IMG/VR virus record: IMGVR_UViG_2711768076_000008 | Source of the DNA: a virus | Taxonomy: Duplodnaviria; Heunggongvirae; Uroviricota; Caudoviricetes | Strand: one strand, 5' to 3' | DNA length: 32,575 nt | Shown here: positions 8,183-10,961 of the stretch, in pieces | How the letters are laid out: every line of letters starts with the position of its first letter | Position numbering within the stretch: the first letter of the stretch is position 1 | Position numbers and translations under genes: made by a program | The notes under the pieces: generated by a model | The model's input: only the letters and a program-made list of their open reading frames with translations | Database searches by the model: none | Told to the model about the DNA's origin: nothing

Positions 8183-8540
8183 TATTCAGATGGTTCTTGA
8201 GCGGTGGGGGGCATGGGCTGCGAGTGATAGCTCTGGGGTAGACTATTCACCTATAGCAGCTGGTTTTAAGGGGCTTATGCCGCAGATAAGTAAAACACGA
8301 ATTTCTTGTACAGACGATGACGCTCTTATCATTGAGAGCTGCCTTGCTTTACTAAAAAAGAAAAAACCGTACGAACATTCTCTGATTGTGGCTCATTACC
8401 TATACGGCATCTCGAAACGGAAGATTGCAAAGGCACGCAAAAAAGATGAGAAATTGATACGGATAGAGATCCAGATGGCAGAGGGCTTTATCGATGGCTG
8501 TCTCTCAATGCTTGATGTTCGTCTCGAGATGGAATTGTGA
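8169..8540 (+). CDS. putative late-gene antiterminator (Q-like)
   Basis: 123 aa ORF directly after rusA, the canonical Q position in lambdoid phages; the sequence style fits small Q-family antiterminators. The family call is from context and recollection only. Confidence 0.5.
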   Translation: MMVRDIQMVLERWGAWAASDSSGVDYSPIAAGFKGLMPQISKTRISCTDDDALIIESCLALLKKKKPYEHSLIVAHYLYGISKRKIAKARKKDEKLIRIEIQMAEGFIDGCLSMLDVRLEMEL

Positions 8541-8556
8541 ACCTCTTGAATATTCT

Positions 8557-8582
8557 AAACGGCCTAAGGGCCGTTTTATTCT
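8557..8582. terminator. bidirectional rho-independent terminator between Q (plus) and the convergent minus-strand operon
   Basis: AAACGGCC-TAAG-GGCCGTTT hairpin with T-rich flanks on both strands; the minus-strand gene's stop codon lies inside the 3' arm. Confidence 0.65.
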
Positions 8583-9007
8583 TCTTTAGTAACTTCAATA
8601 GGTAAAACTTCTACATTCTTACCAATGTTAACAATCTTTCTAACAGTTTCTTCCCGATCAGCAATAAGCTCAGCTTTAAATTTCTCGCTTAGATGAGGGC
8701 TTTTCAGTTGCTCATCAATACCTTTTAAATCTCTCTCAAGGCGATTTCTTAGGGCGGCTTCGGCTGGAGACTCAAGTCCATGTCGATTGATAACATACAA
8801 CATAATGTAGGTTAGCATTGCTGACACTAATGGGGCGAGGGCATACAAAAAAGCTCTCCATTCACTATTAGGGTCAGGCGCCAATAGTGGTACCAATGTA
8901 GTTAGAACTGCGCCAATCCCGCCTGTTGTTAGACCAGAATTACTACTTAAAATGCTTTTTTTATCACCGCTCATTATTTGACTGCCTGTGCGCGGTTGCA
9001 TCATCAA
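8576..9007 (-). CDS. small membrane protein, about 2 TM helices and a charged C-terminal tail (gene 3 of the minus-strand operon)
   Basis: Two hydrophobic helices (GGIGAVLTTLVPLLA; FLYALAPLVSAMLTYIMLYVI) then a K/E-rich tail. Start uncertain (ATG at 9004, 9001 or 8974). AT-rich. Confidence 0.55.
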   Translation of the reverse strand: MMMQPRTGSQIMSGDKKSILSSNSGLTTGGIGAVLTTLVPLLAPDPNSEWRAFLYALAPLVSAMLTYIMLYVINRHGLESPAEAALRNRLERDLKGIDEQLKSPHLSEKFKAELIADREETVRKIVNIGKNVEVLPIEVTKEE

Positions 9008-9227
9008 TTAGCTCAACGATCTTCTTTCCATCTTTAGCATCTAAGTGGATAGTAATCGTTTTTTCAAGCATGCGTTCAGCACTGTAAAACCTTAGTTCTA
9101 CGATTTTTGTAGGAAAAATTTTACGCCACAACAACGCGGAACCAGCATAAACAAAGCGATAGAAGGTCGGGAGACTTACAAGCACCCCCAACCAAAAAAC
9201 GATTTGTAAAAGCTGTTGCTGAATCAT
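8964..9227 (-). CDS. small membrane-anchored protein, 1 N-terminal TM helix (gene 2 of the minus-strand operon)
   Basis: 87 aa; N-terminal hydrophobic segment LLQIVFWLGVLVSLPTFY followed by a soluble domain. AT-rich. Confidence 0.55.
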   Translation of the reverse strand: MIQQQLLQIVFWLGVLVSLPTFYRFVYAGSALLWRKIFPTKIVELRFYSAERMLEKTITIHLDAKDGKKIVELIDDATAHRQSNNER

Positions 9228-9242
9228 TAGTTTCTACCAAAG

Positions 9243-10124
9243 CTAGATCAATTTTTTCCCTTGAATCACGCGATGACGAAGTGCTTTCTTGATAACATAC
9301 TTTTCTGTTTGTCCTCGTGCGGAAGTTGTACGTGTTGTTTCTAGAAGCACAGAAAACATATCTTCACTTGTGATCGTTCCCTCTGCTTGCCTTACTTTAG
9401 CTAAAAACTCATAGTCTGTAAGTAGTACGGAGTGCTCATCTTGGTTGTAGTCCATCCTCCACCCCTTCTCACTATGAAAGTTAACTTGGGTAAATTTTAC
9501 ATTAACCTCTTTTTCTTCAACTGTTTTGGTCAAAAGCGTCCCTCTGGGAAGGGGTTTAATCTCTTCAGTTTGCTCTCCTTCAAGCTTGAGCAAAACTTTA
9601 TCATTCTCATCTACAATTTTAAAAATGGGAGAGTCTTTACCATCTAAAGGAGCCTGAACAACAGAAATCAACGCATCCCGAATTGTTGGCTCAGTTACCA
9701 AGGTTGCAACTGCTGATGAGCATTCAATCTCACCATCTTCAAATTCAAGAACAGCCTTATCTGTTCCTGCTTTTTTGGTAATCGAAACAACTTTTTTTGA
9801 GCCTAATTGTCTTATTAACGATAAAGCGGTGGCATGAGCTGTTGCGCCCACAGTTCCAACAATCCCGATAGTTTGCAGAACGTCAATTGCATGCGGTAGG
9901 AGTTGCACTACAGTATATGCAATACCCACAGATCCTTTCTGGATGGGGGCAGTGACTAAAATTTTTACAGATTTGTTGCCCTCATTTAACAAGCTATCAG
10001 CTTTATTAATAAGAGTTGTCATGGAAAGTATTGATTTACCAAGTGTTTCAGCGTCAATAGCATGCTTTGACAATTCTTTATCATTGGCGTCATAAAACAC
10101 CTTAAAGGAAGTTGACTTCTCCAT
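9243..10124 (-). CDS. hypothetical 293-aa protein (gene 1 of the minus-strand operon), no recognisable domain
   Basis: Long intact ORF with an AAGGA SD 7 nt upstream; AT-rich composition unlike the flanking phage genes. No catalytic or nucleotide-binding motif recognised by eye. Confidence 0.6.
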   Translation of the reverse strand: MEKSTSFKVFYDANDKELSKHAIDAETLGKSILSMTTLINKADSLLNEGNKSVKILVTAPIQKGSVGIAYTVVQLLPHAIDVLQTIGIVGTVGATAHATALSLIRQLGSKKVVSITKKAGTDKAVLEFEDGEIECSSAVATLVTEPTIRDALISVVQAPLDGKDSPIFKIVDENDKVLLKLEGEQTEEIKPLPRGTLLTKTVEEKEVNVKFTQVNFHSEKGWRMDYNQDEHSVLLTDYEFLAKVRQAEGTITSEDMFSVLLETTRTTSARGQTEKYVIKKALRHRVIQGKKLI

Positions 10125-10382
10125 GACGGTCCTTGCTATGCCTCATTGATTAATGCATATCTTGTTGATGGCTAAATTTGTAGAGACTTAATTTACCTAG
10201 AAAAGAAGATAAAATCACTAACGCGGTCCGCATTTTCTTGTTTATTGTGTTAAGAGTGGTCACTTCGGCATACAGCTTAAAACCGCTGCCGTGCGTTTTT
10301 TTGTCGTTTATCTCTGATAATTATGGTGAATGCGCTGGTGGAGGAGGTAAGGGTGATTTTTAACCAGGTGATTTTTGAATGC

Positions 10383-10411
10383 TTGCAACATTGATTTCGT
10401 AACGTTATTAT
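10383..10411 (+). promoter_or_regulatory. candidate sigma70-type promoter upstream of the tRNA cluster (possible late promoter pR' equivalent)
   Basis: TTGCAA (10383-10388), 17-bp spacer, TATTAT (10406-11); the first tRNA begins about 10 nt downstream. Confidence 0.45.
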
Positions 10412-10420
10412 CCTGCGCCC

Positions 10421-10496
10421 GGCCCTTTAGCTCAGTGGTGAGAGCGAGCGACTCATAATCGCCAGGTCGCTGGTTCAAATCCAGCAAGGGCCACCA
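10421..10496 (+). tRNA. tRNA with CAU anticodon (Ile2/lysidine type or Met)
   Basis: 7-bp acceptor stem GGCCCTT/AAGGGCC, perfect T arm (GCTGG-TTCAAAT-CCAGC), anticodon loop CTCATAA, CCA end encoded. Resembles the E. coli ileX-type tRNA as I recall it. Confidence 0.8.
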
Positions 10497-10497
10497 A

Positions 10498-10574
10498 CCG
10501 CCACTAGCTCATCAGGAAAGAGCGTCAACCCTTTAAGTTGAGTGTGCGAGGTTCGAGTCCCCGGTGGCGGTCCA
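10498..10574 (+). tRNA. tRNA-like gene, anticodon ambiguous (loop CCTTTAA reads UUU by position but has C at position 33)
   Basis: Acceptor stem CCGCCAC/GTGGCGG, D stem GCTC/GAGC, anticodon stem TCAAC/GTTGA, T stem with one A-C mismatch, CCA encoded. The arms resemble a tRNA-Arg(UCU) scaffold with an altered loop. Confidence 0.55.
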
Positions 10575-10576
10575 GT

Positions 10577-10652
10577 GCCGACTTAGCTCAGTAGGTAGAG
10601 CAACTGACTTGTAATCAGTAGGTCACCAGTTCGATTCCGGTAGTCGGCACCA
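10577..10652 (+). tRNA. tRNA-Thr (anticodon UGU)
   Basis: Acceptor GCCGACT/AGTCGGC, anticodon stem ACTGA/TCAGT with loop CTTGTAA, CCA encoded; one mismatch in the T stem. Confidence 0.7.
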
Positions 10653-10655
10653 TAT

Positions 10656-10730
10656 GCGGGCATCGTATAATGGCTATTACCTCAGCCTTCCAAGCTGATG
10701 ATGCGGGTTCGATTCCCGCTGCCCGCTCCA
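10656..10730 (+). tRNA. tRNA-Gly (anticodon UCC)
   Basis: Acceptor GCGGGCA/TGCCCGC, anticodon loop CTTCCAA, perfect T arm, CCA encoded; resembles E. coli glyT as I recall it. Confidence 0.8.
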
Positions 10731-10936
10731 GTTAGAGTCTTTCAGTCTGCGATGATGGGAAAGCCCGGAGTGACTGAAAGACGTTTGGGTTATGAATGAG
10801 CGTCTTTTTTGCAAAATTGCTGTGCAGGAATAACAACCTTCGGGCAGGCGATCATTCATAAGCACTCTGCTTTTATTCCGATTAACTGTGGGTGGTTTGT
10901 TGGATAGAGTGCTTTCCTGACTGTAGATCCAATTTC

Positions 10937-10961
10937 GCCCGCTTTTGCGGGCTTTTCTTTT
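10937..10961 (+). terminator. rho-independent terminator upstream of the holin (candidate tR'-type late terminator)
   Basis: GCCCGC-TTTT-GCGGGC followed by TTTTCTTTT, about 60 bp before the holin start. Confidence 0.6.

Follow-up and report, generated by a model that had tools for sequence, protein, structure and literature searches.

Organization of the Q locus

The stretch of DNA analyzed here (the window; 32,575 nucleotides, IMG/VR record IMGVR_UViG_2711768076_000008) carries a gene for a Q antiterminator. Its likely target, a predicted late promoter (pR′) at 10220–10259, lies between a block of reverse-strand cargo genes and four tRNA genes that precede the lysis genes. The region is a lambdoid prophage that is 100% identical to Escherichia coli AMSHJX01 over the analyzed region, and the allele is present in 20 of 5,426 E. 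coli genomes with an identical context every time. The gene order is DUF968/HNH, RusA, Q, three reverse open reading frames (ORFs), four tRNAs, holin, a DUF1327 gene, SAR endolysin, and Rz. The positions of the features are collected in Table 1.

The Q protein matches the full-length profile of PF06530 Phage_antitermQ (E = 5.3e-52) as well as phrog_79, and it matches Q21 in the Protein Data Bank at 7.5e-05. The name Q21/Q933W for the PF06530 family follows Yin et al. Identity is 80–83% to the Qs of SfIV, SEC470, and EC14, 49% to QuuD, 45% to Q933W, and 26–28% to Q21. The window, SfIV, SEC470, and EC14 Qs were grouped as clade A.

There is no space for a promoter directly after Q. A hairpin begins 16 nt past the Q stop codon and touches the stop of the first reverse ORF. 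It folds at −15.1 kcal/mol (z −3.8) on the plus strand and −14.4 kcal/mol (z −4.5) on the minus strand, and its U-tract is good on the plus strand and poor on the minus strand. This predicted terminator marks the end of the cargo block. The 293-residue cargo protein matches PADLOC PDC-S42 (PDLC05015, 4.9e-26), NCBIfam LAPAL_fam (7e-54), and phrog_3243. PADLOC lists PDC-S42 as a candidate defense system, and the NCBIfam name for LAPAL_fam is 'putative phage structural protein'. No family match was found for the 143- and 87-residue proteins. The operon may be an uncharacterized anti-phage system. The predicted late start is 1,715 nt from the Q stop, and a promoter-like element at 10383–10411 is 1.84 kb from Q.

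An earlier reading of the window from sequence alone (the original prediction) had listed Q, the hairpin, the ORFs, the promoter-like site, the tRNAs, a terminator, and the holin, and all are present at or near the positions it gave. It was also correct that pR′ does not fit after the Q stop, that cargo lies between Q and its target, and that the tRNAs are upstream of the lysis genes.

Table 1. Positions of Q, the cargo operon, and the predicted late control elements in the window
Feature	Position	Strand	Basis
Q antiterminator gene, Q21/Q933W family, clade A	8169–8540 (RefSeq start 8172)	+	PF06530, phrog_79
Hairpin terminator between Q and the convergent cargo operon	8557–8576	both	folding
Cargo (moron) operon, three ORFs (143, 87, and 293 aa)	8576–10124	−	RefSeq: three coding sequences
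Reverse-strand ORFs	8576–9007, 8964–9227, 9243–10124	−	
Candidate Q-binding element AACGCGGTCCGCA, core GCGGTCCGC at −32 to −24, near-palindrome	10220–10232	+	Q-clade segregation
Predicted pR′ −10 hexamer, TATTGT	10243–10248	+	homology to Sp5 TATCAT
Predicted late transcription start, A in gttaagAgtgg	10255	+	homology to Sp5 (L013 946)
Decayed promoter-proximal terminator (tR′ homolog)	10268–10302	+	comparison with relatives
Predicted promoter of the tRNA cassette, TTGCAA-17-TATTAT	10383–10411	+	conservation beside the cassette
Four tRNAs: CAT (Ile2/Met), Lys-TTT, Thr-TGT, Gly-TCC	10421–10730	+	ARAGORN, Rfam RF00005 (44–74 bits), RefSeq
Long hairpin after the last tRNA, then short stem and U-run	10735–10811	+	−24.2 kcal/mol, z −1.86
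Strong intrinsic terminator before the holin, hairpin 10937–10952 and UUUUCUUUU	10937–10962	+	
S21-type class II holin, first late gene	11022–11237	+	PF04971, 1.4e-35

A conserved signature marks the predicted late promoter

Homology locates the likely Q target to 10220–10259, where a GCGGTCCGC box is followed by a predicted TATTGT −10 hexamer and a start near A10255. The alignment of 10205–10320 to the Sakai Sp5 (Q933W) pR′ region has no gaps, and the Sp5 pR′ start was mapped next to Q by differential RNA sequencing (dRNA-seq) (Sy et al. 2020, PMC7547250). That study provides three landmarks: the start, a Term-seq 3′ end at +258 in a U-tract, and an RNase E GU|AUU site at +173. Each has a fitting position in the Sp5 sequence used here (L013): 946, 1203, and 1118, respectively. 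From 10208 onward, the window shares sequence with L005, a locus with a related Q and no cargo, and with L006, whose Q is that of L005 and in which a different reverse cargo of two genes fills the slot. Sp5 carries a homolog of this shared segment just past Q933W.

Relatives were surveyed using one genome per species. Among 80 Q loci, 51 have a match to the leader profile downstream of Q on the same strand, and seven added E. coli loci bring the total to 58. About 57 loci, drawn from many genera of Enterobacterales, conserve the (T)AAGAGTGG sequence around +1. The pattern around the start is g(a/t)TAAG-A(+1)-GTGG, and the initial transcribed region, AGTGGTyAC, is near-invariant. Anchoring on TAAGAGTGG shows that TAnnnT is kept at −12 to −7 in 56 of 57 loci. 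The composite promoter signature occurs once in the window compared to 0 expected.

Other candidates were considered and dropped. TAAAAT at 10210–10215 and the AATAAT or GATAAT of relatives were rejected as −10 elements because their spacing to the conserved leader differs between loci; anchoring on the mapped Sp5 start gives a fixed TAnnnT, which falls at 10243–10248 in the window. A promoter-like sequence between the tRNAs and holin (TTGCAA-16-TAACAA, ~10810–10837) is common to phages with other Q families and lacks the signature.

A 36-residue ORF at 10256–10363 (L005 2548–2658, L006 2545–2655) is called 'antiterminator' by RefSeq in relatives. It begins at the predicted late start, spans the leader and terminator, and has no NCBIfam support. 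This ORF is probably an annotation artifact.

The −32 to −24 box segregates with Q clade

Four box types occur at −32 to −24: GCGGwCCGy (16 loci), GCGTACGC (34 loci), CGTwACG (5 loci), and TACGwwCGTA (2 loci, QuuD and Q933W). In these 57 loci, box type and Q clade segregate together without exception at any Q-promoter distance from 15 to 2923 nt. Among the 16 GCGGwCCGy loci, Q identity to the window Q is 66% or more and identity to the L005 Q does not exceed 54%; among the 34 GCGTACGC loci, identity to the window Q does not exceed 61%. On average, Qs are 71% identical within a box type and 51% identical between types. The window box is identical to that of SfIV, and it occupies the −35/spacer position where the Q-binding element (QBE) lies in phage 21. 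We take the box as the candidate cognate QBE because of this position and because it tracks Q clade at all distances; that Q binds there is what we infer from them. The Q21 QBE itself, ATTGAGCAAATGAGCA, is absent from the window with up to 3 mismatches allowed.

The candidate boxes are near-palindromic in the window (10220–10234) and at the equivalent positions of the 57 loci: AAyGCGG-n-CCGCrTT, GCGTACGC, TTTACGTACGTAAA, and TACGATCGTA. The terminator scan also flags the window box as a terminator-like hairpin on the minus strand (10234–10220).

The 10383–10411 element accompanies the tRNA cassette

The element at 10383–10411 matches 9 of 12 consensus positions. The promoter scan returned 3 promoter-like sites compared to 5.2 expected, so the match alone is not above chance. 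We consider the element real because it is conserved across contexts. Alignment shows TTGCA(A/G)-17-TATTAT directly before a CAT-anticodon tRNA in six contexts with Qs of three Pfam families. These contexts include L001, with a Q of PF06323 (Q82 family); L003, with a Q of PF03589 (lambda Q family); and three loci with Qs of PF06530, namely phi330 (L012, Q21), Sakai Sp5 (L013, Q933W), and L005 (clade B). A full pR′21 (TTGACA, QBE, −10, start, pause element, and tR′) directly follows Q in phi330, and the tRNA promoter lies ~230 nt beyond it. The distance from the annotated or mapped pR′/tR′ to the tRNA promoter downstream is ~230–390 nt in phi330 and Sp5. The Sp5 dRNA-seq data give the tRNAs a separate start site (PMC7547250). 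A transcript from 10383–10411 would begin ~3 nt before the mature tRNA, with neither an allele-specific Q-binding site nor a pause element, and no clade-specific box is nearby. The predicted promoter signature at 10220–10259 is 130–160 nt farther upstream. The sharing of the element by three unrelated Q families and the start ~3 nt before the tRNA argue that it is the tRNA cassette's own promoter and not the Q-loading promoter. The window thus has a phage tRNA cassette with its own predicted promoter, of the ileZ type found in Stx phages.

The first tRNA (10421–10496, anticodon CAT) is called Met by ARAGORN and Ile by RefSeq, as is the homologous ileZ of Stx phages. As an Ile tRNA, it would require lysidine modification. 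The Q/pR′ modules and the tRNA cassette meet at a mosaic joint in or next to the AACCCGC..GCGGGTTTTTT terminator, compared at L001 ~2990–3030, L003 ~2900–2930, and window 10285–10320. This terminator is common to the Q82-, lambda-, and Q933W-family Q contexts, and it may be a recombination linker between modules.

The proximal terminator has decayed and a distal terminator precedes the holin

The promoter-proximal hairpin of the relatives is AAACCCGC..GCGGGTTTTT (consensus over 47 loci), and 46 of the 47 aligned leaders have a GC-rich hairpin with a U-run between about +25 and +70. Folding of the window leader gives −11.2 kcal/mol (z 0.10), no better than shuffled sequence, versus −20.8 kcal/mol (z −2.7) for L005. 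Both the GTGG..CCAC segment and the proximal terminator have several substitutions in the window and in three further carriers (L094–L096). RNAalifold analysis of the 47 leaders backs the terminator hairpin alone and does not support the GTGG..CCAC stem as a conserved structure; therefore, the conservation of +1 to +17 is at the sequence level.

The hairpin after the last tRNA is possibly a weak terminator or a processing structure. The terminator hairpin at 10937–10952 folds at −13.7 kcal/mol (z −3.84) and lies 60–70 nt ahead of the holin. Because the proximal terminator has decayed and the distal one is strong, unmodified pR′ transcripts in this lineage probably cross the tRNA cassette and end at 10937–10952, which is probably the effective Q-dependent barrier. 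The original prediction of a strong terminator before the holin stands, and Q-dependent read-through is plausibly needed there. Its proposal that the tRNAs are part of a constitutive leader ending at 10937–10961 may hold given the decayed proximal terminator, with the start placed at ~10255 rather than 10418.

The lysis genes after the holin encode DUF1327, SAR endolysin, and Rz proteins (PF07041, PF00959, and PF03245). An Rfam search of 8000–11400 at E ≤ 1 found no StxS-like or other leader family; it returned the tRNAs and below-threshold antisense Plastid-ycf2 matches on three of them. Sp5 has a strong terminator-like hairpin with U7 at +25 to +52 of pR′ (L013 970–995). The published StxS precursor is 258 nt, so this first hairpin must be read through, at least partly.

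Separation of Q from the predicted pR′ is the norm in this subfamily

The distance from the Q stop to the start is 15–145 nt in 7 of the 58 loci and 637–2,923 nt in the other 51. In 49 of the 51 separated loci, the gap has a reverse-strand ORF as its largest, and 13 of the 58 loci have tRNAs no more than 1.5 kb downstream of the start. The viable phages SfIV and 434, as well as K-12 DLP12 (quuD, IS5/nmpC, essD), have the same layout. The homologous start is predicted at L010 4018 in DLP12, 169 nt ahead of the essD ATG, and at position 37518 of NC_022749. The separation considered striking in the original prediction is thus the rule in this Q subfamily. The window lacks a pR′ directly after Q, as do 51 of the 58 family loci, so adjacency is customary in textbooks but does not define the family.

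The gap across species behaves as a cargo and defense hotspot. The ORF set comprises 89 reverse-strand ORFs aligned from L014–L093, L006, and L009–L011. The cargo is varied and includes Kiwa (KwaA/KwaB), PD-Lambda-5, PDC-S20, PDC-S42, and PDC-M53. It also includes KAP NTPases, RelA/SpoT-domain proteins, a HipA-like kinase, an AbiEii-like ATPase, and a porin, and NA37-family proteins are present in 7 loci.

Discussion

The layout of the window is already known from DLP12, 434, and SfIV. As for tRNAs in the late leader, phage 21 has them annotated and Stx phages are known to carry them. The phage 21 cassette consists of Q21, pR′21 with a QBE and a sigma-dependent pause element (SDPE), tR′, tRNA-Asn, tRNA-Thr, a second terminator, and the S21 holin. 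It shares with the window a PF06530 Q, a site-specific element (a candidate one in the window) in the −35/−10 spacer region, a short terminated leader, tRNA genes between the late promoter and an S21-type holin, and a terminator just before the holin. In our own reading of the phage 21 sequence, a hairpin and T-run precede S21 at the place equivalent to 10937–10962. The differences are that the phage 21 promoter lies 7 nt after the Q stop, whereas the window promoter is 1.7 kb away behind reverse cargo; that the two Qs are 28% identical; and that the QBE, a ATTGAGCA/AATGAGCA direct repeat, is replaced by the GCGGTCCGC near-palindrome. Phage 21 also has a TAAGCT-type pause element, and none is clear after +1 in the window. 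The logic of lambda is shared as well: a constitutive late promoter, a terminated leader (6S RNA), and promoter-proximal Q loading. In contrast, the lambda Q is of the unrelated family PF03589, its promoter adjoins Q, and no tRNAs or cargo lie between.

The 933W/Sp5 cassette consists of Q933W, pR′, the StxS leader, tR′, a tRNA promoter, ileZ-argN-argO, and stx2AB. Sp5 and the window have a homologous, gap-free promoter and leader, a homologous tRNA promoter, and a CAT-anticodon tRNA. The Sp5 late promoter is constitutive, its leader is terminated, and its tRNAs start separately (PMC7547250). The Sp5 promoter overlaps the Q 3′ end and its cargo (tRNAs and stx) is downstream of pR′, whereas the window has extra cargo upstream of pR′ on the opposite strand. 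The box is TACGATCGTA in Sp5 and GCGGTCCGC in the window, and Sp5 has a 258-nt leader and a second terminator yielding StxS, whereas the window has neither. DLP12, 434, and SfIV share the order of a same-family Q, reverse cargo, conserved promoter and leader, and holin, and SfIV has a Q with 83% identity to that of the window and an identical box. Their cargo is a porin or other genes (nmpC::IS5 fills the gap in 434) compared to the PDC-S42-like three-gene block of the window; they have no tRNA cassette, and their proximal terminator is intact. PMC7918800, citing Rueggeberg 2013, reports that the DLP12 lysis genes are Q-controlled.

We favor, with a probability of about 0.78, an antitermination cassette of the Q21/Q933W family in which three reverse cargo genes separate Q from a displaced pR′ at ~10220–10259. 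This reading is built on homology, conservation, box/Q-clade segregation, and module boundaries, all of which are observed. The cargo block at 8576–10124 would have been acquired horizontally between Q and its promoter. Q would act at the displaced pR′, as it can because it is a diffusible protein, and the Q-modified RNA polymerase starting at ~10255 would pass every downstream terminator and transcribe the holin, endolysin, spanin, and morphogenesis genes. The tRNA cassette would be a separate mobile module with a constitutive promoter of its own, and polymerase starting there would not load Q and would stop at 10937–10952. With the proximal terminator decayed, that hairpin would become the main Q-controlled barrier. 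Promoter activity, pausing, Q binding, and terminator efficiencies are the predicted parts of this scheme.

Several points weigh against the displaced cassette. The predicted promoter has no recognizable −35 hexamer, and its −10 has only 4 of 6 matches. No TAnnnT pause-type element is present at +2 to +15 of the predicted start; (T)AAGAGT across −4 to +3 is the sole −10-like pause candidate, a possible but weak assignment. The box is near-palindromic and the characterized Q21 QBE consists of a direct repeat, and the two may be bound in different ways. An alternative 8-bp hairpin with U7 at 10268–10302 might still terminate. Finally, a DLP12 paper numbers its regulatory fragment −121 to +650, after Rueggeberg 2015, which implies a +1 at ~L010 3663, ~355 nt upstream of the homologous K-12 site that the fragment includes. 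This last point, together with TAAAAT at 10210–10215, would suit a Q-dependent promoter farther upstream in 10125–10219, near the start of the cargo, with 10243–10302 merely leader. We consider that placement very unlikely. There is no conservation upstream of about −45 among same-clade loci, where the sequence belongs to differing cargo blocks. The Q stop of L019 and L020 is 15 nt before the predicted start, leaving no room farther upstream outside Q, and the conserved position is where the Sp5 start was mapped.

The original prediction placed pR′ at 10383–10411, with Q loading there and the tRNAs forming a constitutive leader to 10937–10961. The element is the best sigma-70 match near the lysis genes and is strongly conserved, a strong terminator follows the tRNAs, and the upstream terminator is weak in this lineage. 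We nevertheless consider this proposal very unlikely, for the same element accompanies tRNA cassettes with PF06530, PF06323, and PF03589 Qs. It lies downstream of pR′21, the QBE, and tR′ in phi330 and of the mapped pR′/tR′ in Sp5, where its homolog gives the separate tRNA start (PMC7547250), and its transcript would begin almost at the tRNA with no clade-specific box nearby. The cassette could also be a relic, its elements fossils, with late control no longer selected and lysis no longer under Q. Both leader hairpins are substituted, with a fold no better than shuffled, and only 20 of 5,426 E. coli genomes have the allele, with the context the same in each. A relic is improbable, although we give it more weight than either alternative promoter placement. 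The Q ORF, box, −10, TAAGAGTGG, tRNAs, distal terminator, and lysis genes all remain intact; SfIV, a viable phage, has an identical box; and a strong distal terminator is left to impose Q dependence.

The displaced cassette suggests a broader picture that we offer tentatively. The interval between Q and its promoter in the Q933W/QuuD subfamily may be a dedicated hotspot for reverse cargo and defense genes, insulated from late transcription, and in this lineage four tRNAs may have joined a ~700-nt constitutive late leader with one distal Q-controlled gate. For annotation, the late promoter in this subfamily should be sought by its signature (clade box, ~10 nt, TAnnnT, nnTAAGAGTGG); neither adjacency to Q nor the nearest good sigma-70 match locates it. 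Reverse-oriented cargo, defense genes included, has landed repeatedly in the Q-to-pR′ gap. The pairs of box and Q clade are natural specificity variants for the study of DNA recognition by the Q21 family. The layout will not surprise specialists, but the box/Q-clade pairing and the survey of the gap as a cargo slot may have modest wider use.

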